Positions 3,801 through 50,045 of a stretch of 64,000 bases of DNA are shown here, piece after piece (position 1 is the stretch's first letter; each line of letters starts with the position of its first letter). A program made the translations under genes and the position numbers. The stretch comes from Candidatus Uhrbacteria bacterium. Its GTDB lineage: Bacteria > Patescibacteriota > Patescibacteriia > UBA9934. The notes beneath the pieces were generated by a model that did no database searches, was not told where the DNA came from, and saw only the letters and a list, made by a program, of their open reading frames with translations. The stretch is taken from positions 6,567 to 70,566 of the forward strand of contig DMOG01000026.1 in NCBI GenBank assembly GCA_003453595.1, given 5' to 3'.

Positions 3801-4067
3801 ATGAAAAACTACTTATTGACTTTGTTTATAATGATACTAATGGGAGCTGGGTGTGCCGTAGTTGACGAAGATTTCCCAATAGTTAATAAGGAGGCCGAAC
3901 CTTTTGAAGATATTTATTATATCTGCACGAGTACGGAAACAGAGAATAGAATTTATGAAACTGTATTTTGCGGTGATGATTCTTGCTGGCTTTCCTTTTA
4001 TGATCAAAACGGAAACCTTATAGAAAAGACGCCTGAACTTGGACCCGGTGCTAGCAATATGAATTAA
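3801..4067 (+). CDS. Small lipoprotein, hypothetical
   Basis: The N-terminus MKNYLLTLFIMILMGAGCAV has a lipobox (LMGAG-C). Confidence 0.5.
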   Translation: MKNYLLTLFIMILMGAGCAVVDEDFPIVNKEAEPFEDIYYICTSTETENRIYETVFCGDDSCWLSFYDQNGNLIEKTPELGPGASNMN

Positions 4068-4312
4068 CCAGAAACTAAAGTTGAAGACTGTCAAAGAACT
4101 ACCGAGAATTATTTTATGAGTAAGATTGAAGAATAATAGTTCGCACCTCGCTCATGAGCCCCTGCCATGTAGAACGCTTCCTAGACGGGGAGCGTTTTGC
4201 TATTGAAGAAAACAGTAATTTTTGCGTAATACTAATAAAAAGCAAGACGCACCCGAGGACGGCGACGAGTACGTCTGCCGTCACGCGGGTGCGTGAGCGA
4301 GTGTGCCAGACC

Positions 4313-4906
4313 CTATCGGATCATGGCGTGGTTGTTCCAGAACTCCACCGAGGCGAGGTAGGCCTCGCGGTTGAGGGCGACGCCGCTGCCGCCCTCCTCC
4401 TTACCCAGTGCGTTGCGCATCATGGTGATGGGGGGCATGGGGTCCTCGGCGGGGTTGAGGCCGGCGTTGATGGAGACGATGCCCCACTCGGCGTCGGGTA
4501 CATCGCGCTCCATGTTCGGCGTCTGGTCGGCTTCCTCCTCCAGTGCCTCGCGGTTGTAGAGGATGATGTCGAGCCACTCCGCCTGCGGCGCCTTCAACCC
4601 CTCGAACCAGCGGGTCAGCACCGGCAGCTCACCCTCGCGCCGCGCCTCGTAGCCGGAGCGCAGCAGGTGTGCGTTGTCGGGGGTGATGGCCGCGATGGGG
4701 GCCGTGGTGGTTGTGGTGTTGCGGACGAAGAGGTGCTTGCAAAACGGCGCGTAGCCGTCCACCAGCATCTCGCCCGCCTCGAGCGCCGCATTGGCGATCT
4801 CGACGAGCTCCTCGGCGGTCATCCCAACGATGCGGGTGCCAGCGAAGTTCTTGTTGGCAAAGTGGCGGCCGAGGGCGAACTTGGTCATTCCGATGGTGTT
4901 GCGCAT
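4313..4906 (-). CDS. Hypothetical protein encoded in a high-GC island (about 62% GC); start assigned at MRNTIG with a GGAGG RBS
   Basis: A long ORF in a high-GC segment. A GGAGGCACC sequence sits directly upstream of ATG 4904-4906 on the minus strand. The overlapping plus-strand ORF 4154-4969 is judged a GC-induced shadow ORF. Confidence 0.55.
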   Translation of the reverse strand: MRNTIGMTKFALGRHFANKNFAGTRIVGMTAEELVEIANAALEAGEMLVDGYAPFCKHLFVRNTTTTTAPIAAITPDNAHLLRSGYEARREGELPVLTRWFEGLKAPQAEWLDIILYNREALEEEADQTPNMERDVPDAEWGIVSINAGLNPAEDPMPPITMMRNALGKEEGGSGVALNREAYLASVEFWNNHAMIR

Positions 4907-5180
4907 GGTGCCTCCATGAAGTTGGCCCGGATGCCTCCGGACGTGTCGACTTCGACACGATTCGGTTAGACGTTTGATACAATCTCGCGTCGCCTGCTTT
5001 ATAGGTTGGCACCTACAAATCAGGAAAAACGAGAAAAGCCAGTAACTGGATTCGTTCAAATAAAGAGAATAAGCGCAAATACCGGCGTTCTGTGGTTACC
5101 GTTACCCTTTGTGTGCTTGGATACCATAAATCTCAAGCATTAGGACAGCCCTGCTTGCAGGGTGTTTTTTTAATTATTTT

Positions 5181-6335: not shown

Positions 6336-6555
6336 AGAGATTTATTAATTAACGCGAAATAATAGCACAAAAACGCGGTTTTGTCAATCACAAAACCTAA
6401 TCTTTACTATAAATAATGTACTATAAATAATTGACAAAAAGCCTTATTTAGACTACACTTCTCGAGTTGTACTAAGGGATAGCCATGCGTTCCCCGACTA
6501 TTTTAAAAACTTAAGCCTGTACATCGAGTTATCACAACAGTGGAAGCCTCATAGC

Positions 6556-6596
6556 AACCACCCCCCACCCCTCCTTAGAAAAGGAGGGGAGTCGAG
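6556..6596. repeat. Copy of the dispersed palindromic repeat (AACCACCCCCCACCCCTCCTTAGAAAAGGAGGGGAGTCGAG) in the 5' leader of the DEAD-box helicase gene
   Basis: Matches the family consensus CCCCTCCTT-loop-AAGGAGGGG. Confidence 0.6.
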
Positions 6597-6636
6597 ATGT
6601 GATGCCACAGGGGTTTGAGTAATATACGGCACATGC

Positions 6637-11405: not shown

Positions 11406-11423
11406 GATCTTGAAAAGAATGTG

Positions 11424-11475
11424 CGGTCAGGCCTTTACCCGTTACTTTTTAACGGATAAAGGCCTGACCGCATTG
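11424..11475. terminator. Long hairpin (stem about 22 bp) GCGGTCAGGCCTTTACCCGTTA / TAACGGATAAAGGCCTGACCGC between two minus-strand genes
   Basis: An inverted repeat with one mismatch, seen in the sequence. Confidence 0.5.
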
Positions 11476-19153: not shown

Positions 19154-19194
19154 AGTGGAGTTATTTTATCACAAAACGCAGACGGCAGATAAAC

Positions 19195-19365
19195 TCGGTC
19201 TCTCCCCCTTTTACAAGGGGGGAGTGGGCTGTGCCCTTCGTAGCCCAGAGGGCGAAAAAGGGAGGGGGTTAATATAGCTTCCGCCTTCCGGAATAACCAC
19301 CCCTAGCCCCTCCTTAAAAAGGAGGGGGAACCAAGTATTCCTAATCCCAATCTCCTCAATCCCCT
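19195..19365. repeat. Cluster of palindromic repeat elements (CTCTCCCCCTTTTACAAGGGGGGAG; GGGCTGTGCCCTTCGTAGCCCAGAGGGC; AGGGAGGGGGTTAATATAGCTTCC; AACCACCCCTAGCCCCTCCTTAAAAAGGAGGGGG) at the left edge of high-GC island B
   Basis: Several hairpin-forming units are shared with the clusters at 30690-30925 and 33230-33375. Confidence 0.65.
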
Positions 19366-19729
19366 CCCAACCTACTCCCCCAAAATTCCCCATTATTCGC
19401 CCAATTTTGTCGCTTTACACTTGACAAAATCGCTTTTTTATGTTATATTTCTCCGTTCGCATAAAGGCAGAAAGAGCCTAAAATGCGAGTTCTTTTCCAC
19501 TTTGTCATCCCCTGGCTTGACCCTCCTATGCCTGCAAGGCTACGGAAGGGCTAGCCAGAGGATCCACCGACAGAAAATTTGCTGGATTCCTGCTTTCGCA
19601 GGAATGACAAAAAAATCTAGTTCTACAAAGCCCCGCCGGGCGAGGTCAAGTTCGACCTTGTCTGGCATCTGTTCGAAAACACCGGCCCAAAAGGCCACCA
19701 ACGCCCTCAAAAAGGGCAAGGAGGCCGAA

Positions 19730-20452
19730 ATGGCCGAAGAGAAGAAAAACGGGAAGCGTCAGGGCCCAGCCCTGTTCCTCTATCGCGGTCGAAAGGAGTG
19801 CGAAGAGCACCCCCTGACCGCGGACGAGCAGACCCTGGCCGACGCCCTGCGCGCCATGGCCACCATGGCCAACCAGGATCCGGCCGTCATGGCCAAGGTC
19901 CTGGAGATCGCCAAGGCCGCCCGTGCCCAGACCGAGCAGGCCCAGCTCAGCTGGTTGCTCGAGAACAAGCCGGACCAACTGGTCTACAAGGCCAAGTACG
20001 ATGTCCGACGCTTCCTCCAGCCCACGGACATGGCCTGCCAGGCCGTACTCGAGGCGGCGGGCAAGTCCGGGATATACCGCAAGTGGCGCGAAGGCGACAC
20101 CTGGAAGGACTCCGGGACCTTCCCCTACCGGTACGAGCTGGACAAAAAGACTGGCATGATCCGGCTCTCGTCCAACCTCGTCGCGGCAGCCCGCGTGATG
20201 TACTTCATCGCGGGTAGTCAGAAGAAGGGCGTCCGCATGTCCTTCGCCGAGACCGGTGACCGGCTGGTCGCTCTGGGTGCCCTGACCCAGAAGCAGCTGG
20301 CGGACATCCGCAAGCAAGCCGGTCCGCTGGCCGTCAAGGCCGGTGGCTCGGAGCAGGAACTCGAATTCCGACCGACAGCCGGGCGCCAGTTGGCGCAGGC
20401 CAAGGGAGGTGGCCTCACCGCCACCATGGCCGAGATGGCCGGCAAGGGCTAG
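19730..20452 (+). CDS. Ala-rich hypothetical protein in high-GC island B (about 63% GC); start assigned at MAEEKK with an AAGGAGG RBS
   Basis: A strong SD lies 6 nt upstream of ATG 19730. The opposite-strand ORFs here are GC shadows. Confidence 0.55.
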   Translation: MAEEKKNGKRQGPALFLYRGRKECEEHPLTADEQTLADALRAMATMANQDPAVMAKVLEIAKAARAQTEQAQLSWLLENKPDQLVYKAKYDVRRFLQPTDMACQAVLEAAGKSGIYRKWREGDTWKDSGTFPYRYELDKKTGMIRLSSNLVAAARVMYFIAGSQKKGVRMSFAETGDRLVALGALTQKQLADIRKQAGPLAVKAGGSEQELEFRPTAGRQLAQAKGGGLTATMAEMAGKG

Positions 20453-20594
20453 ACCACTTCCCGCGTGCAGGACACAATCGTTGAGACCAACTACCCCAGA
20501 GTCTCCGATTGCCTGTACGCGGGTCACGCAGAGTTTATGATGCGAATCATCATAAGTTCTGAGTGACCTGAAAATTTGAGAGAGATTATTAAAA

Positions 20595-20635
20595 AACACT
20601 TTAGATTTGTTTATGGCAAATCTAAGGTGTTTTTA
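20595..20635 (+). terminator. Intrinsic terminator (15-bp stem AACACTTTAGATTTG / CAAATCTAAGGTGTT followed by TTTT)
   Basis: Read directly from the sequence. Confidence 0.6.
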
Positions 20636-20883
20636 CACAGCAACCTGGAGGTTGATGGATTTCTTCTGACAATCATTTAATGTTATCAGGAGGATTTGGA
20701 ACCTCAAGTTCTAGGACCTGGCCTTGGCTAGCTCCCAGTACACACCCGAGGTTCCTCGGGGCATATTTCTTCGGAAGTCACTGCCCCACATGTTCCTAGC
20801 TAGTCTAGGAGCTCTACATCACCTCCAGATTGCTGTGCCTAAAAAACACGCATTCCAAAAACCCGCACACCCAGGAGAGAAGA

Positions 20884-21467
20884 TGACGCAGTTTGTATCC
20901 GACCGGAACGGTCGCGTCGTGGTCGGGGCCTCCTGCCCCGACATCGGCGAGCTCGGCCTGGCCAACCTGTACGACGACGGAGACGAGGTTGCCCAGTCGT
21001 ACGACCCCCTGCGGCGGTGCAAGCCGCTCGTCGACGAAGTCGATGAGGACTGCCTCGCGCTCGAAGAGATCAACCTCGACGAGGCGCAAGCCCCGTGGTG
21101 GTATGACTTCTGCGATGAGCGCGAGGCGATCGAGCCCGACGAAGACGATGCCCCGACCGAGGCCACCCTGCCGGCCGACGCGGACAACGACGACGACCTC
21201 GACGAGCTCGACGCCATGGCCGAGCATGTCGCCAAGGGTTTCGACATGGAGATCCTGGAGGAACGCGCGTTGCGTGCCCACCTCCAGGACAGAGATCCCG
21301 GCCGCCAGCCGGCCAACAAGGGGGGGAGCTGGATCCATCGGCGCCCCCGGCAGTGGGTCGTGGCTCGTGGCCACGACTCCATCCTGCAGGCCACGCCCCG
21401 TCGGACGCCCAAGGCGTTCTGCGAGGCCGAGCGGCTCGCCGACATCCTCGCCGAGGCCACGGCCTAG
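20884..21467 (+). CDS. Acidic (Asp/Glu-rich) hypothetical protein in high-GC island B; start assigned at MTQFVS with an AGGAGAGAAG RBS
   Basis: The ORF has an SD and is followed by a 24-bp perfect palindrome CCCCCGACACAGCTGTGTCGGGGG at 21490-21513. Confidence 0.5.
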
Positions 21468-21529
21468 TCGCGGACTCGACCTACTATGCCCCCGACACAG
21501 CTGTGTCGGGGGCGTTGCGCGTTCTAAAT

Positions 21530-21594
21530 GGGGTCAGGTCTTTACTCGGAACACCTCATATCGATTTGGGTGTTCCGAGTAAAGACCTGACCCC
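21530..21594. repeat. Long-stem hairpin element, copy 1 (26-bp arms GGGGTCAGGTCTTTACTCGGAACACC / GGTGTTCCGAGTAAAGACCTGACCCC around a 13-nt loop)
   Basis: A perfect inverted repeat. The same arms recur at 49939-50003 with a different loop. Confidence 0.8.
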
Positions 21595-21598
21595 ATCT

Positions 21599-22372
21599 TT
21601 ATTCCTCCTGTCCTATTTTCGCCAGCCTCACTGCTTCATTCCAGGCTAGCTCTAGTGTTGCTCGGGCAGTGTCGGCTATTGTTTTGGATTGGATTTCGAC
21701 AGCGATAATCCCTTGAGTGTATGAGAATAAGACAAGTCTATCGCCACAGACTGTCATCTCCCCTTTGATATCAATCAAATCTGGATCAATAACCACATAT
21801 TCAAAATTATTTAGCAGATCCAAATGCGATACATCTTGTTTTGTGGCTATAATGGTTTTTACTTTTCTATCTTTCCTTTTGAGTTCCCTAGCATGCTCCT
21901 GCTCTTTGGCTGGATCATACAATTTCTTGAGCGTATCAAGCCCAACAATCTGAATCATATCCTCATCAAGCATCTCATACTCAGTCTGCATGGCTCGCAA
22001 GCCAGTCACCCGCTCAAAATATCGAATCTTTGGCTTGGCGCTGTCTTGATTATAAAAAACCTGCAGTCTAGTAATTACTTCATTTGCCCGCATTTGACGC
22101 TTTTGTAGTTCCCTTTGTTGCAACTCTAAAAGCGTCAAAATTGACCCTGGTGCTTCTGCTCTGTACTGTCGTTGATCCTCGGATGATACCAAAGTAATCA
22201 TTCCCTTTTTGCGCAAACTTTCTAAAACAGAATAGGTTGTGGCTCGATTGATATTTGCTTTAACTCCAATCTCGTTTGCACCAGTTGGCCCAAACTCCAA
22301 AGCCGTGACATAAATCACAGCTTCATTGTGCGTGAATCCCAGTTGTACTAAATCAATTATCAAATCTTGCAT
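21599..22372 (-). CDS. TrmB-family transcriptional regulator
   Basis: Has an N-terminal wHTH 'AVIYVTALEFGPTGANEIGVKANINRATTYSVLESLRKKGMI' and a TrmB-like C-terminal domain. Confidence 0.65.
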   Translation of the reverse strand: MQDLIIDLVQLGFTHNEAVIYVTALEFGPTGANEIGVKANINRATTYSVLESLRKKGMITLVSSEDQRQYRAEAPGSILTLLELQQRELQKRQMRANEVITRLQVFYNQDSAKPKIRYFERVTGLRAMQTEYEMLDEDMIQIVGLDTLKKLYDPAKEQEHARELKRKDRKVKTIIATKQDVSHLDLLNNFEYVVIDPDLIDIKGEMTVCGDRLVLFSYTQGIIAVEIQSKTIADTARATLELAWNEAVRLAKIGQEE

Positions 22373-26507: not shown

Positions 26508-26592
26508 TTCGCGAAACTAAGTCAGTTAGACTTAGACACAGAGACTTAGACATTTTGTCTAAGTCTCGAAGCACTTTAGCTTGATTTTATTG
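26508..26592. repeat. Left flanking repeat of the IS200-like element (two hairpins: CTAAGTC-agtta-GACTTAG and GACTTAGACA-ttt-TGTCTAAGTC, plus CGAAGCACTTTAGCTTGATTTTATTG)
   Basis: A near-identical copy lies at 27370-27449 in direct orientation. Confidence 0.75.
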
Positions 26593-26638
26593 ATTTTTTT
26601 TTATTTTGTATAATCCTTTTCAGCTATATTTCAATAGA

Positions 26639-27250
26639 CTAGATCTTCAATCCAAAATCAATATTCATAGGACAACCATATTTTATCCAATCGATTAAAA
26701 ACTTGTCATACTCTTCACTACAGTCAAATTCATCATAGATTGATTGGCTATTACAGACATTATTACATTTACTAAATAATCTTGGATAACTAGACCATTG
26801 ATAATTCTGTAAATATTTAATGGCTTCTTGCACATTATCGACACCCTTCACCTTCCAATCTGGAAATAAGTATTTTAATGGATTCAAATGGATATATCGT
26901 GATATATGCAATAAATATCCATCATTATCAATTTCCTTAACCTTATAAGGTCCTTCGAATATACACCCAGTTCTTCGACTTATATCGTTATATCTGACAG
27001 TCGAGCTTATCCCAATTTTTTGCATAAACTTAGATATTCCTCCGTCAATTTTCTGCCTTAATAACAAATGAAAATGGTTATCCATCAAACAATAACAAAC
27101 AATATCGACTAATTGTTTACTTTTATTAAACCTCTTAAGGTTATACAAGAAAAATTTTCGATCATAATCACTTTTAAACAGTGGCTGCTTATCAACGCTT
27201 CTATTATATATATGGTAAAAACCATCATTAACTAAATTTTCGCGACGCAT
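26639..27250 (-). CDS. IS200/IS605-family or REP-associated tyrosine (Y1 HUH) transposase-like protein
   Basis: Has 'HIYNRSV...CYCLMDNHFHLLL', which is the HUH motif (HFHLL), a downstream catalytic Tyr region, and a size typical of about 200 aa. Confidence 0.7.
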   Translation of the reverse strand: MRRENLVNDGFYHIYNRSVDKQPLFKSDYDRKFFLYNLKRFNKSKQLVDIVCYCLMDNHFHLLLRQKIDGGISKFMQKIGISSTVRYNDISRRTGCIFEGPYKVKEIDNDGYLLHISRYIHLNPLKYLFPDWKVKGVDNVQEAIKYLQNYQWSSYPRLFSKCNNVCNSQSIYDEFDCSEEYDKFLIDWIKYGCPMNIDFGLKI

Positions 27251-27369: not shown

Positions 27370-27449
27370 GTGTCTTAGTCAATTTGACTTAGACATAGAG
27401 ACTTAGACAAAATGTCTAAGTCTCGAAGCACTTTAGCTTGATTTTATTG
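27370..27449. repeat. Right flanking repeat of the IS200-like element (GACTTAGACA-aaa-TGTCTAAGTC hairpin; the loop is inverted relative to the left copy)
   Basis: A direct sequence match to 26508-26592. Confidence 0.75.
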
Positions 27450-27454
27450 GGTTT

Positions 27455-28285
27455 CTATTTTCGCGGAGATTCTTTGCTGCGGTATTTATAAAAAAACTTT
27501 ATGGCACTATTTATCTGAATCCAAGTAAATTTATTGAACATTTGTTGCAAAAGCCCGCCGTCAGCGCTAGCTCGGCGGTGGTAGTGAATCATGTGTGCAT
27601 TTGGATAATACACAACTTTGTGTCCGTGTTCCCAAAATCGGCGACACAAATCATTATCTTCGTAATACATGAAAAATCGCTCATCAAAACTGCCGACTTC
27701 ATCCAAGGCAGTTTTGCGCGTAAACAAGGCCGCGCCAATTAGTGAATCAACCTCCATCTGTTGATCATGGCTTTGATCCATCATCAAATAATCCTCAATC
27801 GCTTGCTTACCAACTCCAAACTTTCCTAAAAATGTTCGACGATATGCTGGCACCATTAAAGTTGGAGACCGATAACATGAATACTGCAAACTTCCGTCTG
27901 GATTACGCAATTGCGGACCACACATTCCCACCTCTGGATTTGCGTCCATAAACTCCAGCATTGTTTCCAACGACTCTGGCTGGATCACAATATCTGGATT
28001 AAAAATCAGTACATAACGCCCACGCGCCACATCTATCCCCCTATTCATAGCTGAGCCAAATCCAACATTACGCTCCAGCGGAATATGACGAACCTGTGGA
28101 AACTCAGCGCGCGCCATTTCTCCAAATCCAGCCCCTGGATTGTTATCAACCACAATAATTTCAAAACCAAGCTTTGGTGCAGCTCGTCGAATACTATCAA
28201 GCGTTTGGCGAATAAGATACTTTTCAAATGTATGGACAATGATAATCGACAAGTCCAGTTGTTGGGCCTTATCTGACATAGGCAC
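27455..28285 (-). CDS. Glycosyltransferase family 2
   Basis: Has 'IIVVDNNPGAGF...' and 'FNPDIV', the GT2 DxD-like region. Confidence 0.75.
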   Translation of the reverse strand: MPMSDKAQQLDLSIIIVHTFEKYLIRQTLDSIRRAAPKLGFEIIVVDNNPGAGFGEMARAEFPQVRHIPLERNVGFGSAMNRGIDVARGRYVLIFNPDIVIQPESLETMLEFMDANPEVGMCGPQLRNPDGSLQYSCYRSPTLMVPAYRRTFLGKFGVGKQAIEDYLMMDQSHDQQMEVDSLIGAALFTRKTALDEVGSFDERFFMYYEDNDLCRRFWEHGHKVVYYPNAHMIHYHRRASADGGLLQQMFNKFTWIQINSAIKFFYKYRSKESPRK

Positions 28286-29329: not shown

Positions 29330-29700
29330 GATTGTCGAGGAGGCCAACCCCCCACTTCTCAGTTCGATCAAATTCGAAAAGATCTCTCCCCTTCTTCACT
29401 AAAGTTACGAAGGGCCCATCGAAGTTTGATACGAAGTTGGGCTAGGCGTCGAGATGGAGAGACTTATTCCCCACTTCGAACGAAGAGAGAAGTCTTCTCG
29501 ATGAAATCTATCGTCGCTCTGCTCCTCGGGATGGGAAATAGAAGTCGAGATAGGACAAGACTCATTCCCCACTTCGAACGAAGAGAGAAGTCTTCTCGAG
29601 AAGATCTCTCGTCGCTCTGCTCCTCGAGATGGGGAAAAAGAAGTCGAGAGATGGGAAATGCACTCCTCGACTCCTCGCGTAAACGCTCGGTCGCTCGGAA
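29330..29700. repeat. Tandem repeat array with a period of about 96-99 bp, with units beginning at 29448, 29544 and 29643 (partial) plus degenerate upstream copies; each unit contains small palindromes (TTCGAACGAA, GAGAAGTCTTCTC)
   Basis: Unit alignment was seen directly, e.g. GTCGAGAT(G/A)G...TTCCCCACTTCGAACGAAGAGAGAAGTCTTCTCGA...CGTCGCTCTGCTCCTCG(G/A)GATGGG. Confidence 0.75.
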
Positions 29701-29802
29701 TGACGGCATATGGAATACAAATATATAAAAAGCCGTCAAAAGCGAACACCCCCATGACCGAAGTCTTGGGGGTGACGGAAGGGGGTTGAGAGAGGCCGCC
29801 GT

Positions 29803-30504
29803 CTACATGAAGTAGTACCAGGCGTCGCAGCCCTCCTCGGGGGTGGTGGCGGAGGTGCCGGTGCTCCAGCCGAGCGACTGGACGCCGGACAGGCCGTCGG
29901 TGGTGGTGTCGATGGTCTCGTCCGAGAAGTAGAACTGACCGGCCAGCCCGCAACTGGTCCCGTCCAGGTTCGACGAGGCGTACGAGTACGCACCGTCGTC
30001 CACCCGCTCGACGTTGAGCTTCAGCGAGTAGAACTCGCTGTCGCAGTCGAACTCGCCCTCGACCCACGCCGCGTTGGTCGCGGTGCCGACGGCGTTGCCG
30101 TTGCCCCAGGAGGAGCAGACAGCGTTGTCACCGGCGTCGTAGGCGATGACCCAGAGGGACATCGCGTCATGCGACTGGACACCCCAGTACCCGAGGTACC
30201 AAGTGTCGGCGTCGGCATCGGCGTCGGCATCGGCGTCGGCATCGGCGTCGGCATCGGCGTCCGCGTCCGCATCCGCATCGGCGTCGGCGTCCGCGTCCGC
30301 ATCGGCGTCCGCGTCGGCATCCGCGTCGGTGTCGCTGTCGGCATCGGCGTCGGTGTCCGCGTCCTCTTCCCCGTCGCCGGGGTTGAGGTCACGATCGCCG
30401 TCGTCGGCGACGTAGCCGGTGTCGACGTCGTCGCGGTCGCGGGGCTGGGACAGGTCGGTGCAGCCGACGAGGGCTGCGATCATGGTGATCAGGAAATACC
30501 GCAT
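29803..30504 (-). CDS. Lipoprotein with a (Asp-Ala)n low-complexity repeat, in high-GC island C
   Basis: Has a lipobox ALVGC-TDLS, a long DADADA... run encoded by the GCATCGGCGTCG hexamer microsatellite (about 30200-30345), and a Trp/Gly-rich C-terminal domain. GC is about 65%. Confidence 0.6.
   Translation of the reverse strand: MRYFLITMIAALVGCTDLSQPRDRDDVDTGYVADDGDRDLNPGDGEEDADTDADADSDTDADADADADADADADADADADADADADADADADADADADADTWYLGYWGVQSHDAMSLWVIAYDAGDNAVCSSWGNGNAVGTATNAAWVEGEFDCDSEFYSLKLNVERVDDGAYSYASSNLDGTSCGLAGQFYFSDETIDTTTDGLSGVQSLGWSTGTSATTPEEGCDAWYYFM
30200..30345. repeat. Hexanucleotide microsatellite (GCGTCGGCATCG)n inside the lipoprotein gene, encoding (DA)n
   Basis: Read directly. 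The shadow ORFs on the plus strand (SASASA..., GIGVGIGV...) are artefacts of this repeat. Confidence 0.8.
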
Positions 30505-30689
30505 TTTCTTTCTCCGATTTTGGCCCTTTCGAGCCGGGGGGTGGAAGGCCTTTCGGCCGTTTTTTGAAGGTGTGACAGTCGGGATTGAACCAACATGTCA
30601 ACAGAGCAGGATATCACAAAATAGGGGTTTTGTCAAGGGGTTGGGTTGTAAAATGCACTAAAACCAGCCATTTTTGGCTGGTTTTTGAG

Positions 30690-30925
30690 GTTTTGATAGG
30701 CAACCACCCCACACCCCTCCTTGGGAAGGAGGGGAATCGAGACTCGGTCTCTCCCCCTTAGTAAGGGGGTCTTTTGCACATCATCTATTGACAAATCTGG
30801 CAAAATGGGCTAAGGTTCAGCGTTCATTATCAAAGAAGCGGAAGCCTCAACAACCACCCCTCCTCCTTCGCACAAGGCTACGGAGGACTATCGCAATTCC
30901 TCCTTGGGAAAGGAGGGGAGCCTGA
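30690..30925. repeat. Two clusters of the palindromic repeat family between the divergent island-C lipoprotein genes (GATAGGCAACCACCCCACACCCCTCCTTGGGAAGGAGGGGAATCGAGACTCGGTCTCTCCCCCTTAGTAAGGGGG; ...CAAGGCTACGGAGG...TTCCTCCTTGGGAAAGGAGGGGAGC)
   Basis: Matches the family consensus and sub-units also found at 19195-19365 and 33230-33375. Confidence 0.7.
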
Positions 30926-31092
30926 GCCAAAAAGGAAAAAACTCGGCTTTTACAATATCTGCACAAAATCGTGAAGATATTATACAAGCCGAGTTCCGAT
31001 TCCCGAAACCGGCCCGTGCCCGTCCCTCAATCCCCTTTGCGGGGCGGAGCGGGCATCACCCCCAAAGGCGGAGACCCCGCCAAGGAGGCGCC

Positions 31093-31620
31093 ATGCGCAA
31101 CCTGATGTGTCTGATCACCATCCTGCTGGCCTCGGCCTGCACGGATCTGTCCGGAAACCAGAACGGCGAGGAGACCTACGTCCCGTCCATGTCGTCCGAC
31201 GACATGGACAGCGATGGCCTGGTCGACGGCTACGACTCCGACGAGATCGTCGGCCCCATCGCCAGCTACCCGACGGAGCTCTGGGTGAACGCTGGCGCCC
31301 TGTCCTTCCCCTGGATGGGTGAGGAGATGTCCTTCCAGTGCCGCGACCACAACGGCCGGGTGCTGGACTTCGCCTGGCAGTACTGGTACAACGGCGAGGC
31401 CACCCCCGCCAACACCTGGTTCGTCGCCTACATCGACGACCGGGCCGGCGAAGGAGACTGGCTCTGCGCCTTCACCCGCAACGACCGGTCGGTGCTCGAC
31501 ATCACCGTGTCCAACGACCCCCTGGTCTGGACGCACGGCGGCGTCTGCATCTACCAGGCCAACAACGGCGTCTACCAGGCGCCGGGCAACAACTCCTGCG
31601 ACGACATCCGAGGCCTCTAG
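31093..31620 (+). CDS. Lipoprotein, hypothetical, in high-GC island C; start assigned at MRNLMC with a CAAGGAGG RBS
   Basis: Has a lipobox LLASAC-TDLS, which is the same C-TDLS start as the divergent (DA)n lipoprotein. It contains Trp and Cys pairs, and GC is about 64%. Confidence 0.6.
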   Translation: MRNLMCLITILLASACTDLSGNQNGEETYVPSMSSDDMDSDGLVDGYDSDEIVGPIASYPTELWVNAGALSFPWMGEEMSFQCRDHNGRVLDFAWQYWYNGEATPANTWFVAYIDDRAGEGDWLCAFTRNDRSVLDITVSNDPLVWTHGGVCIYQANNGVYQAPGNNSCDDIRGL

Positions 31621-31699
31621 CCTCGACCGTCGCCCAATCCTTGAACCCCCGACAGCTCAGCTGAGTATCGGGGGTTCTGTGCGTTTAGGTTATAGAACT

Positions 31700-31812
31700 T
31701 GATAGGCAACCACCCCCCCCACCCCTCCTTGGGAAGGAGGGGAGACCGAGGTGCGGGGATCGCGTGATAGGCAACCACCCCTAACCCCTCCTTGGGAAGG
31801 AGGGGTGGTTAG
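31700..31812. repeat. Two tandem copies of GATAGGCAACCACCCC-N-CCCCTCCTTGGGAAGGAGGGG; the second copy overlaps and encodes the last about 10 codons of rfbD
   Basis: Sequence identity to the family was seen. The reverse complement of the repeat translates to ...NHPSFPRRG*, matching the rfbD ORF C-terminus. Confidence 0.75.
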
Positions 31813-33229: not shown

Positions 33230-33375
33230 GGGGAAATAGATTAAGAAAGGAGGGAAAATCGAGACTCGGTCTCTCCCCCTTAGTAAGGGGGAGTAGGAGG
33301 GGGTTAATATAGCTTCCACTTTATAAAATAACCTCCCCTAACCCCTCCTTAAAAAGGAGGGGAACCGGGTTTGAG
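33230..33375. repeat. Cluster of palindromic repeat units between rfbC and rfbB (…ATCGAGACTCGGTCTCTCCCCCTTAGTAAGGGGGAG…GGGGTTAATATAGCTTCC…CCCCTAACCCCTCCTTAAAAAGGAGGGG)
   Basis: Shares sub-units with the clusters at 19195-19365 and 30690-30790. Confidence 0.7.
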
Positions 33376-35524: not shown

Positions 35525-35821
35525 CTAATTATTAATGAAGCGAAGTATTATTAAGCCTTGTTCCACAAAAAAATTATCTCTTATTCGGTCATGCAATTTT
35601 CCACTCTCTTGATAGTGCGAATCACCATCCACTTCGATAACCAATTTCTTCTCAGGGCAATAAAAATCGGCTATATATACTCCTATACCATGTTGCCGAC
35701 GGAACTTTACTCCTAATTGTGATCTGCTCAAATATCTCCAGAGAATCTGCTCTGCTTTTGAACAATCAGACCTTAATTGGCTTCGTTTACTTTTTTGAAT
35801 TCTCTGATTAAAAACTTTCAT
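35525..35821 (-). CDS. DUF559 / Vsr-like endonuclease-domain protein
   Basis: 'AEQILWRYLSRSQLGVKFRRQHGIGVYIADFYCPEKKLVIEVDGDSH' is the DUF559 pattern. The ATG start is at 35819-35821. The upstream GTG-start extension would be encoded by the repeat at 35822-35866. Confidence 0.7.
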   Translation of the reverse strand: MKVFNQRIQKSKRSQLRSDCSKAEQILWRYLSRSQLGVKFRRQHGIGVYIADFYCPEKKLVIEVDGDSHYQESGKLHDRIRDNFFVEQGLIILRFINN

Positions 35822-35866
35822 ATAATAGGCAACCACCCCTACCCCCTCCTTGGGAAGGAGGGGTGC
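35822..35866. repeat. Palindromic repeat copy (TAGGCAACCACCCCTACCCCCTCCTTGGGAAGGAGGGGTGCGC) abutting the DUF559 start
   Basis: Matches the family consensus. Confidence 0.7.
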
Positions 35867-37669: not shown

Positions 37670-39394
37670 TTAGTTTTTAATGATTGCGTACAAAGACTCA
37701 TCCCCAACGGTTGCAATCTTACGGAATTGAATATCGTTTTCCGCAAAAACCACTGATTGCAAATGTTCAATATCTGTCTTGGGAAGCGTAATTCCGAAGT
37801 AAAACATTGATGTTTGATCAAGTATCTCAGGAATGGCCTGATAGACATTTTCATCACGCAATGGAGTGATCACAGATCTATCTGGGAATATATACTTGTC
37901 AGCCATGTCAACAATAATTATGCAGTCTGGCGGTGTCTGTTCTAAAACGATCTGCTTTTTTTCAGTGAAAGATTCAAGATTATCATGAGTTTGAATAAAT
38001 CCATCATTTCCCCAGATCACTAACCGAACTGAAAAAAGAAAAACTAAAAAGATAATCAACCAAGGGCCAAAGTCAGCAAAAGGAAAATCCCTTCTTTTTA
38101 ACCATGCTCCGATCTTATCAACGGCAATGCCGGCAAATAATGAACCAAGAACAAATAATGGCAGCCAATAACGCACATAGGAGTTCCCTAAAGTCAAAAT
38201 TGAAGCATCAGGGTTGTCAGTGAATTTCCAGCTTCCATAAACAAATGCCAGCCAAATGCTAAGACCAAAAGTGATAATAAGCAAAGGTCGCCATCCTTTA
38301 TCCTTGAACACAAAAATTATTCCAAGAATTGAAAGTATGCTCATCCATGGATATAGCAGAAATCCATACTGCCAAACATTGCGCAAAATATTCATCTCAT
38401 GAATACCAAACGGGAATAGTACATTTAAAGGCGCAGGCCAAGATTTATCAATATTTGAGTCTTGATAGGCAACCACCCCCGACTCCTCCTTGGGAAGGAG
38501 GGGGGCTTCAGTCTGACTCTGATCTGCGACTGTATATCCAGTCTCTAGCATTGAACCGTATAAAACCTTATTCAATGCCAAAAATGGCAATAGAATCAAG
38601 ACTGCTGAAATTAGAAAAACAAAAACATTCTTTAAAACAAGCTCTTTTCGTTGCCAAAATAAAAATCCCACAACTAAAACTCCGACCCAAACAGCTTCTG
38701 ATGCTCGAAAAGAAATCGCCAACCCAAGCATCAGCCCTGCCAAAAACTCATCTAATATAACAGTTTTCTGCCAATTTGCTTTTATTGGCTGACAAACAAT
38801 GAAATACAAAGCTAGTAACAAAAGTGCAACAAAACCAACATTGTGCATCATTGTTCTGCCTGTGTAATACCAAAAAGCTGGATGAATCATGAGCAACAAT
38901 GCGCCAAAATCCGACAATCTTTCATTCTCAGTTAATCGATATAAAATTTGTTTCCAAGCAAATATTGCCAGAACAGCCAACAATGGAGTGACTAGCGAAA
39001 TACTCCAAGATCCAAAGATAAACGCAAATAAACCAGATAATACAGATAGTCCAAGGAAACTGACTGGAACTATGTATTGGATGCTATCTGTAACCACCCC
39101 CGCCCTTCGCTCTGCAGAGCTTCGGAGCGGCACAGCTAACCACTCCTTAAAAAAGGAGGGGAAACGAGACACAACAATCATGCTCCTTGGATGGACTAAA
39201 TTGGTCCATGAAATACCTTGATATTGTGATTGAATTGCTAAAGTTTGATCTTGAGCAAACTGTAAAGCAAAAACAGCGTTTGCATTCTCATCAGGAGAAT
39301 TAAAAATCATTTCAGATTGAGAATATGCAAAAAATGTAACAGAGAAAAAAAAGAGCAATAATGCCAAACTTCTTAAAACTGTTATTCTGCGCAT
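37670..39394 (-). CDS. GT-C fold glycosyltransferase (ArnT/PMT-like polytopic membrane protein) carrying two in-frame copies of the dispersed repeat
   Basis: Has about 12 TM helices and an N-terminal 'SPDENANAVFA' (DE-type first-loop motif). Repeat copies at 38463-38510 and 39091-39173 are read through in frame (…QTEAPLLPKEESGVVAYQD… and …SSAERRAGVVTD…). Confidence 0.6.
   Translation of the reverse strand: MRRITVLRSLALLLFFFSVTFFAYSQSEMIFNSPDENANAVFALQFAQDQTLAIQSQYQGISWTNLVHPRSMIVVSRFPSFFKEWLAVPLRSSAERRAGVVTDSIQYIVPVSFLGLSVLSGLFAFIFGSWSISLVTPLLAVLAIFAWKQILYRLTENERLSDFGALLLMIHPAFWYYTGRTMMHNVGFVALLLLALYFIVCQPIKANWQKTVILDEFLAGLMLGLAISFRASEAVWVGVLVVGFLFWQRKELVLKNVFVFLISAVLILLPFLALNKVLYGSMLETGYTVADQSQTEAPLLPKEESGVVAYQDSNIDKSWPAPLNVLFPFGIHEMNILRNVWQYGFLLYPWMSILSILGIIFVFKDKGWRPLLIITFGLSIWLAFVYGSWKFTDNPDASILTLGNSYVRYWLPLFVLGSLFAGIAVDKIGAWLKRRDFPFADFGPWLIIFLVFLFSVRLVIWGNDGFIQTHDNLESFTEKKQIVLEQTPPDCIIIVDMADKYIFPDRSVITPLRDENVYQAIPEILDQTSMFYFGITLPKTDIEHLQSVVFAENDIQFRKIATVGDESLYAIIKN
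38463..38510. repeat. Palindromic repeat copy inside the GT-C coding sequence (TGATAGGCAACCACCCCCGACTCCTCCTTGGGAAGGAGGGGGGC)
   Basis: A consensus match. The reading frame is preserved across the insertion. Confidence 0.75.
39091..39173. repeat. Palindromic repeat copy inside the GT-C coding sequence (GTAACCACCCCCGCCCTTCGCTCTGCAGAGCTTCGGAGCGGCACAGCTAACCACTCCTTAAAAAAGGAGGGG)
   Basis: A consensus match. The reading frame is preserved across the insertion. Confidence 0.7.
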
Positions 39395-49877: not shown

Positions 49878-49938
49878 AAGTAGATATGTGATTTATGCCT
49901 ATATTTTATCGGATTATAGAAGATATGGCAACCAAGTT

Positions 49939-50003
49939 GGGGTCAGGTCTTTACTCGGAACACCCAAATTGATAAAAGGTGTTCCGAGTAAAGACCTGAC
50001 CCC
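49939..50003. repeat. Long-stem hairpin element, copy 2 (same 26-bp arms as 21530-21594, loop CAAATTGATAAAA)
   Basis: The arms are identical to copy 1. Confidence 0.8.
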
Positions 50004-50018
50004 ATTTGCGCAAAACCA

Positions 50019-50045
50019 AAACCCCGCCGAAGCGGGGTTTTGGTA
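50019..50045 (-). terminator. Intrinsic terminator for the giant surface protein gene (CCCCGC-cgaa-GCGGGG, T-run on the minus strand)
   Basis: A hairpin plus a run of Ts in the minus orientation lies about 40 nt after the stop. Confidence 0.7.

Follow-up and report, generated by a model that had tools for sequence, protein, structure and literature searches.

Why does a bacterial genome carry the same long, perfectly paired hairpin at separate places, just past the ends of genes? The question is raised by a 64,000-nt stretch of Candidatus Uhrbacteria DNA (contig DMOG01000026.1, positions 6,567 to 70,566; called the window below), which contains two such hairpins and a third, diverged member. 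Very probably, they are non-autonomous, gene-less derivatives of TIRtrons, in which two terminal inverted repeats (TIRs) stand head-to-head with a short remnant between them. In a TIRtron, a gene resembling those for REP-associated tyrosine transposases (RAYTs; REP, repetitive extragenic palindrome) is accompanied by long TIRs and not by REPs, and the enzymes are named TIRYTs (Di Nocera, De Gregorio & Rocco 2013, PMC3733652). A gene-less derivative of this type is the TIRYT counterpart of a miniature inverted-repeat transposable element (MITE) or of a REPIN, and so a small mobile repeat of a kind described before.

The 26-mer GGGGTCAGGTCTTTACTCGGAACACC occurs exactly four times in the window, as two inverted pairs. 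These arms, the hairpins they form and the diverged third copy are:

21530-21555/21569-21594 and 49939-49964/49978-50003: the two pairs of 26-mer arms, exact matches.
21528..21596, plus strand: TIR-dimer hairpin copy 1, with a perfect 28-bp stem ATGGGGTCAGGTCTTTACTCGGAACACC and a 13-nt loop TCATATCGATTTG.
49938..50004, minus strand: TIR-dimer hairpin copy 2, with a perfect 27-bp stem and a 13-nt loop, reading TTTTATCAATTTG on the minus strand.
11422..11472, minus strand: copy 3, a diverged family member with arms TGCGGTCAGGCCTTTACCCGTTA / TAACGGATAAAGGCCTGACCGCA and a 5-nt loop.

An earlier, sequence-only reading of the window had reported twin hairpins at 21530-21594 and 49939-50003. They are real, and their perfect stems are longer than it noted (28 and 27 bp). 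It had also described the two loops as different. Compared in the same orientation they agree at 2 of 13 positions, but the reverse complement of the copy 2 loop agrees with the copy 1 loop at 10 of 13. Since the loops match only after inversion, copies 1 and 2 are one element of 65-69 nt in opposite orientations, and the loops are homologous. Copy 3 has the core GGTCAGGyCTTTACyCG in common with copies 1 and 2, and its arms show a single C/T mismatch, which is a G-U pair on the minus strand. Folding z-scores for copies 1 and 2 are -13 to -14 as RNA (both strands) and -12.5 to -13.7 as DNA, and the dimer as single-stranded DNA forms a hairpin of -34 to -35 kcal/mol. That chance, or a repeat collapsed during assembly (a possibility raised with the first description), lies behind the identity of the two copies has a practically negligible probability. 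Shuffled sequences give 0.00 expected matches of the 26-mer, the copy 1 junction is identical in five independent assemblies (L137-L141, two of them metagenome-assembled genomes (MAGs) at NCBI) and 94.5% identical in another (L125), making at least six independent assemblies with the same junctions, and the hairpin family occurs in hundreds of unrelated assemblies. The organism itself is found in many samples, the two NCBI MAGs among them, and MAGs of it include GCA_003489995.1 and GCA_003455975.1. Homologues of its TIM and TrmB proteins put it within the Patescibacteria, close to Candidatus Uhrbacteria.

The family, called here the GGGGTCAGG family, extends far beyond the window. GTDB, at one genome per species, was scanned with the pattern GGTCAGGNCTTTA-N(8-38)-TAAAGNCCTGACC, giving at least 113 loci with at least 118 hairpins in at least 12 bacterial phyla, often with several copies per genome. 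The matches listed, comprising the 118 hairpins to which the family statistics below refer, come from Elusimicrobiota, Desulfobacterota/Syntrophales, Beta- and Gammaproteobacteria, Acidobacteriota, Nitrospirota, Verrucomicrobiota/Kiritimatiellae, Planctomycetota, Gemmatimonadota, Omnitrophota, Campylobacterota, Muiribacteriota and Patescibacteria. Their recurrent outer stem is GGGGTCAGGyCTTTA. Two flanking G's, not demanded by the pattern, are conserved in 97% and 87%, with AT preferred immediately outside them. The inner stems are lineage-specific (88 distinct 8-mers among 236 arms), and the two inner arms of one copy are 90% complementary. Half-sites are spaced 8 to 38 nt or more apart, and a single arm is not palindromic (-1.0 kcal/mol in copy 1, -2.5 kcal/mol in copy 3). 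Solo arms, dimers and arrays are all seen in other genomes. Full-text literature searches for the core strings returned no relevant paper.

By its own account, the sequence-only reading would have been refuted had there been only these two copies, placed without bias. Further copies exist, and the bias towards gene 3' ends is clear: 36% of the listed copies lie between convergent genes, against a background of 17%, and 10% between divergent genes, against 16%, with a median distance from copy to gene 3' end of ∼20 nt. No target-site duplication is apparent, as direct flank repeats of at least 4 bp occur in 0-1 of the 118 copies at every assumed boundary, which is the control level, and repeats of 3 bp in 0-4 of 118 compared to 0-3 in the control. 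The only enrichment in the flanks is of the self-complementary dinucleotide AT, and no one-sided target motif was found at the hairpins. Genes between close hairpin pairs (L005, L019, L053, L093) are ordinary and unrelated, and all-against-all clustering of neighbour proteins gives no recurrent partner save orthologous loci and a small Y1 cluster.

Several variants of the arrangement were seen in passing. The palindrome runs 6-14 bp beyond the GGGG, in unrelated sequence, in about 5-8 of the 118 copies (L090, L092, L086, L081, L041, L020), and the element there seems to occupy the middle of a pre-existing palindrome, for example a terminator. Short tandem duplications that comprise the repeat and a few adjacent bases are seen at the ends of TIRtrons (L132, 1417-1470 and 2353-2401; L135, 1430-1469), and arrays of arms or hairpins with a period of ∼40 or ∼330 nt in L031 (1547-2321) and L066 (∼4430-4560). 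These tandem and array forms match the 'grouped' TIR arrangements of Di Nocera et al. Hairpins are also kept at orthologous sites in different species, once in three Elusimicrobia (L052 7528-7569, L056 3210-3267, L072 426-472) and once in two Syntrophales-type genomes (L001 4500-4557, L105 3783-3840). Their outer stems are identical while the apical parts and loops vary in length and sequence, which suggests that the hairpins have lasted long while losing apical sequence, or that the sites were used more than once.

The link to an enzyme comes from genes beside the hairpins. There are three Y1 genes in ∼790 kb of fetched loci, and the two outside the window sit 8 and 15 bp from a hairpin. At one of these loci (L048), a solo arm is found just upstream of an open reading frame (ORF) starting MARPLRIEFPGAIYHITSRGN, and a full hairpin follows it; at the other (L011), the full hairpin is upstream of the gene. 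Both ORFs, and the window ORF at 26639-27250, match Pfam Y1_Tnp (PF01797). The best NCBIfam match of all three is the REP-associated tyrosine transposase NF047646, at scores below its cutoff of 80 bits (74.2 and 78.7 bits for the hairpin-associated enzymes, 44.4 bits for the window Y1). A homology search with the L011 protein finds at least 8000 proteins at E<1e-20, typically of 283 aa and with a C-terminal helix-turn-helix (HTH), some of which are labelled RayT or REP-associated tyrosine transposase by their sources.

Six further members of this clade, from unrelated taxa, were then picked by protein identity only. All six genes are bracketed by inverted single arms, GGGGTCAGGTCTTG(A/C/T). 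As this sample was not chosen by DNA pattern, it confirms the core independently of the scan. In 7 of 7 genes (the six and L048), a gap of 31-33 nt separates the end of the upstream arm from the start codon, and the downstream arm overlaps the stop codon or lies at most 44 nt past it; with L011 the genes number eight. The clade enzymes contain the HUH and RY(I/V)xLNP motifs, and their C-terminal HTH is indicated by precomputed matches to Pfam HTH_23 and related families together with an aligned C-terminal segment. Across phyla they are 53-64% identical to one another. For Sterolibacterium and Acidobacteriota MAGs, the gene-side repeat runs on into the lineage-specific inner sequence that the dispersed hairpins of that genome also have.

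To which group of Y1 enzymes do these proteins belong? Published enzyme sequences were rebuilt from Additional file 5 of Quentin et al. 2018 (PMC6006769), in whose classification 20 of 26 TIRYTs belong to TnpAY1 subclass 2.1, a subclass with an HTH or DnaA-like domain at the C-terminus. In BLASTP comparisons the hairpin-associated enzymes have their best matches among the published TIRYTs (35-44% identity, E 1e-32 to 1e-42) and their worst among classical RAYTs (19-30% identity). Judged by these matches and by the HTH, they belong with the published TIRYTs (probably of subclass 2.1 type). Within that group they form a distinct, very large clade, because none exceeds 44% identity to any of the 13 published TIRYTs compared, and this clade may overlap with the widespread 'Group 1' RAYTs of Bertels et al. 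2017.

The DNA repeats agree with this placement. Many TIRs share the sequence GGGGWSAS, at about the same distance from the gene (PMC3733652), and the motif is also quoted as GGGG[AT][CG]A[CG] (PMC6006769); the outer end of copies 1 and 2, GGGGTCAG, fits it. TIR families are described as moderately abundant and dispersed, occurring as singles, dimers or groups (PMC3733652), and here there are three dimers in the window and ∼5 further loci of the same subfamily in related metagenome contigs. As in TIRtrons, inverted repeats bracket a Y1/HUH gene at a near-constant distance (in other genomes, not in the window), the enzyme has a C-terminal HTH, the repeats are dispersed between genes, single or dimeric, and there is no GTAG tag. 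The window differs from the published cases in its near-perfect dimer hairpins with stems of 23-28 bp, and in its host, a member of the Patescibacteria (Candidate Phyla Radiation, CPR) with no cognate gene in 64 kb. Neither the identity of a 13-15-nt core across at least 12 phyla nor the tight placement at stop codons is described in the TIRYT papers PMC3733652 and PMC6006769. The sequence-only reading had suggested a mobile hairpin (a MITE or IS200-like end), and this was essentially right, in that the arms are TIRs of an IS200-like (Y1/HUH) unit and the hairpin is its gene-less derivative.

Related systems resemble the GGGGTCAGG family to varying degrees. The REP/REPIN-RAYT systems, reportedly the subject of work by Nunvar in 2010, Bertels and Rainey in 2011, and Ton-Hoang and Messing in 2012, have in common with it a usually single-copy Y1/HUH gene flanked by the repeat that it presumably mobilises, many gene-less intergenic copies, mostly after 3' ends, inverted doublets that give long hairpins, and no target duplication. 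A classical REP was nevertheless rejected as the identity of the repeat. There is no GTAG/CGTC at either end, the ends being (AT)GGGG...CCCC(AT), and an arm alone is not a 20-40-nt imperfect palindrome. A REP unit forms a hairpin by itself, whereas a single TIR arm is not (-1 kcal/mol), and both arms are needed to form one. Classical RAYTs were rejected likewise, on the BLASTP identities given above and on NF047646 scores of 44-79 bits relative to the cutoff. The IS200/IS605 elements and the gene-less PATEs share the Y1/HUH core (PF01797), a presumed substrate of folded single-stranded DNA and the lack of target-site duplication. Their ends are not inverted repeats; each end bears small subterminal hairpins, oriented alike at the two ends, and insertion is 3' of a specific tetra- or pentanucleotide. 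The ends of the window hairpins, in contrast, are true inverted repeats, and lack a detected one-sided target motif.

Bacterial MITEs (NEMIS/Correia, RUP, ERIC, Nezha) are likewise short, non-coding and intergenic, have conserved TIRs with a variable interior, and form strong hairpins when transcribed. If the hairpins were classical MITEs, they would be deletion derivatives of insertion sequences of DDE type, moved by cut-and-paste on double-stranded DNA. Conserved terminal repeats around variable interiors would suit such an origin, as would a 139-bp version with an AT-rich interior in a relative (L146, below), and the outer GGGG resembles what we take to be the repeat ends of the Tn3 family. 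We consider it very improbable. A classical MITE relies on a DDE transposase and leaves a target-site duplication, and neither is seen at window-type hairpins: in the 118 copies no duplication of 3 bp or more rises above the control, no DDE transposase recurs beside the hairpins, and the only gene found bracketed by the repeats is a Y1/HUH transposase (8 of 8).

The setting of the three copies bears on a further alternative, in which the hairpins are first and foremost RNA elements under selection. Copy 1 is flanked by convergent genes, copies 2 and 3 by genes of the same strand. The sequence-only reading had put the hairpins at the ends of convergent transcription units, which holds for copy 1 and not for copies 2 and 3. 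Copy 1 lies 2-4 nt beyond the stop codon of a TrmB-like gene (stop 21599-21601, minus strand) and 15 nt beyond a terminal GC hairpin (21489-21512) of a GC-rich island, island B. At copy 2, the order on the minus strand is a 1419-aa gene (stop 50082), a GC hairpin with a T-run (50016-50043), the element, a promoter-like site at 49931-49903 (10 of 12 matches) and a tetratricopeptide-repeat gene (start 49877). The GC hairpin, described previously as a conventional terminator that immediately follows the element, thus precedes it in the direction of transcription, between the upstream stop and the element; it is terminator-like by eye only and was not called by the consensus terminator scan. With this hairpin before it and the promoter-like site after it, copy 2 stands in the spacer between transcription units. 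Copy 3 has a minus-strand gene on either side, with the stop of one (11494) 21 nt before it and the start of the other (11405) 16 nt after it; the adjoining 180-aa ORF has no Pfam match and no similarity to Y1 proteins.

As terminators, mRNA 3'-end stabilisers or RNase III substrates, the hairpins would be expected to show the strong bias towards gene 3' ends and the very stable RNA folds that are found. Full pairing of copy 3 is seen on the transcribed minus strand only (by its G-U pair), and this copy alone passes the terminator scan, on that strand. Some hairpins are kept at orthologous sites across species while their loops change, and side effects of this kind are known for REPs and MITEs (PMC3733652). 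Selection for RNA as the primary cause is still unlikely, as it accounts neither for a 13-15-nt sequence common to at least 12 phyla nor for the same sequence as two arms ∼900 nt apart flanking a transposase gene. In a simple terminator scan, copies 1 and 2 have no T-run and no terminator call, and copy 2, given its neighbours, may be barely transcribed. Copies occur in either orientation, and a relative that shares the flanking genes lacks the element at one site. No Rfam family matches the hairpins: at the gathering threshold only tRNAs are found in the window, and at a permissive threshold the hairpin gives generic miRNA-precursor matches only, far under threshold. An RNA role could exist as a secondary, exapted function. 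Two further options of the sequence-only reading, an RNase III/dsRNA target and a recombination site, receive no specific support from any of the observations. The earlier argument, that an invariant stem with a variable loop reflects selection on structure, loses its basis, since the loops are homologous and a head-to-head dimer is complementary by construction.

Comparison with relatives supports mobility. A metagenome scan for the subfamily of the window gives 13 stretches, which reduce to ∼5 loci, from relatives of 40-45% GC. The loops of the subfamily are homologous, with the consensus yTATATCGATTTGr; two loci have shortened forms of 46 nt in which the loop is lost. At 5 of 7 loci (those of the metagenomes plus the window), 4-10 nt separate the element from a stop codon, and copies are found in both orientations. 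At the site of copy 1, a relative whose TrmB is 91% identical (L146) has a different 139-bp TIR pair (4273-4411), with 23-nt arms GGGGTCAGGCCGTTAGTCGTCAC that are ∼69% identical to the window arms (manual count), enclosing an AT-rich interior of 93 nt. Two separate hits on one site would account for this, as would concerted divergence of both arms. In L147 (TrmB 78% identical), island B and its terminal hairpin are kept, and a 33-nt AT-rich spacer takes the place of the element, while in L148/L149 (TrmB 71% identical) the island is present and the element absent. The island was there first, and the copy 1 hairpin came later, by insertion or replacement; its behaviour is that of an element which is mobile or turns over rapidly. 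A difference in length of 60-133 nt in L140/L145 was considered as an empty site and rejected, being an assembly gap of Ns inside the island.

Island B is one of three islands of 60-70% GC (A, ∼4000-5060; B, ∼19200-21525; C, ∼29400-31800) in host DNA of ∼40% GC. Their ORFs have a coding signature (GC content of 0.77-0.91 at third codon positions), the two island B ORFs tested have no Pfam matches, and the islands look like genes acquired from high-GC donors. Copy 1 stands exactly at the junction of island B and host DNA, and a second subfamily locus (L118/L121/L123/L127) is within ∼600 nt of a GC-rich island. On this ground the hairpins might be read as binding or recombination sites for host or island proteins, for example an attachment site that delimits islands, or a palindromic operator; we give this very little credence. 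Island B is kept in relatives down to 71-78% TrmB identity, and as L147 has it without the hairpin, the hairpin is not part of the island boundary, contrary to the suggestion that copy 1 might mark its right end. Islands A, B and C show no homology to one another (tblastx), the island next to L121/L123 has short matches only (11-27 aa) to island C, and other island edges have no such hairpin. Two of ∼7 loci near islands are not beyond chance (rough p ∼0.18, with ∼11% of intergenic regions bounding islands), and half-sites as variably spaced as these are unsuited to a dimeric protein that binds double-stranded DNA. No systematic link between hairpins and islands is seen.

The anatomy of the hairpins, their link to the enzyme, the lack of target-site duplication, the two orientations and the presence or absence of the element at one orthologous site are observations; the way in which a TIRtron derivative might move can be proposed by analogy with better-known enzymes. 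The Y1/HUH enzymes TnpA of IS200/IS605 and TnpA-REP of E. coli act on folded single-stranded DNA. When the DNA becomes single-stranded, for example as lagging-strand template, the palindrome would snap into a long hairpin, the foot of which would re-create the double-stranded GGGGTCAGG repeat, as the paired distant repeats of a full TIRtron would. A TIRYT could then bind the stem foot in trans, possibly via its C-terminal HTH, and cut and rejoin single strands at the foot, which would lead to excision and to reinsertion without target-site duplication. Effects on mRNA 3' ends would be a secondary consequence, if any.

Several points weigh against the hairpins being TIRtron derivatives, or against this route. 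The 13 core positions were fixed by the scan pattern, so their invariance is partly forced and is not independent evidence. The outer end of copy 3, GCGGTCAG, departs from GGGGWSAS by one mismatch (GCGG for GGGG). Copy number in the lineage is low, with ∼7 distinct subfamily loci in the metagenome collection, and the persistence of hairpins at orthologous sites (L052/L056/L072 and L001/L105) could reflect a host function. We know of no TIRYT that has been biochemically tested; the binding, the cleavage sites and the single-strand route are what we infer for a TIRYT acting on these hairpins. The activity of TIRYTs is a proposal also in the papers that describe them (PMC3733652, PMC6006769). Finally, no TIRYT of the GGGGTCAGG clade lies within the 64-kb window, and the one Y1 gene present was rejected as the cognate enzyme:

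26639-27250, minus strand: window Y1 gene, for a 203-aa IS200-like Y1/HUH protein with the motifs NHFHLL and RYIHLNP.

This protein is 28-34% identical to the GGGGTCAGG clade, lacks both the MARPLRIEFPGA N-terminus and the HTH, and has its best matches among published TIRYTs (28-36% identity). Its gene lies in a patch of 27-31% GC, between different, directly oriented repeats of 86 nt (26517-26602 / 27374-27459, 87% identical), each of which contains two hairpins based on GACTTAGAC/GTCTAAGTC. Gene and repeats together have the look of a separate Y1 unit. Perhaps the window copies are orphaned or relict, or a TIRYT encoded elsewhere in the genome may act on them; repeats and gene do not always coincide in genomes (Di Nocera et al. 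2013, PMC3733652).

The window contains other repeats besides those of the GGGGTCAGG family. A second dispersed family consists of small GC hairpins, CCCCTCCTT-GGGA/AAAA-AGGAGGGG, GAGACTCGGTCTC and CCCCCTTAGTAAGGGGG, with conserved flanks:

6544-6597, 19186-19336, 30690-30769, 30896-30926, 31698-31808, 33257-33370, 35819-35863, 38459-38503 and 39139-39169: members of the second repeat family.

Several of its copies border islands B and C, and one member of 80 nt has counterparts of 93-94% identity in related metagenome contigs (L116, L117, L120, L122, L124, L126). Inside island C (30169-30415) is a 12-nt tandem repeat, (GTCGGCATCGGC)n, of about 14-20 units, which would encode a low-complexity stretch of Asp/Ala type in a minus-strand ORF (29803-30504). 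At 2796-2841 there is a perfect, loopless palindrome of 46 bp, AAATCGCGTCACATTAGTGACGA / TCGTCACTAATGTGACGCGATTT, unrelated to the GGGGTCAGG family.

For the window, the finding means that a conspicuous structure is explained without invoking a new RNA or a new recombination system, as the debris of transposon ends, from a class that has been described but little studied. The reach of such elements includes Patescibacteria (CPR) genomes, where they come and go at single sites between close relatives. For genome scans there is a warning: in a head-to-head dimer, the combination of a perfect stem with a loop that varies does not testify to selection on RNA structure. The core GGGGTCAGGyCTT, found across at least 12 phyla, together with its spacing of 31-33 nt to the start codon, provides a concrete substrate for TIRYT biochemistry. 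A bolder proposal, which we put forward tentatively and regard as rather doubtful, is that the TIRYT clade with GGGGTCAGGyCTT repeats is a currently active family of single-strand hairpin transposons spreading between phyla, the gene-less dimers of which are aimed just past stop codons, hit the same site repeatedly (as in the window and L146) and persist in tiny CPR genomes without the enzyme. If this were true, the family would be a tractable model of DNA recognition by TIRYTs, in which a fixed stem foot of 13-15 bp is read by the HTH and cleavage occurs at the foot.

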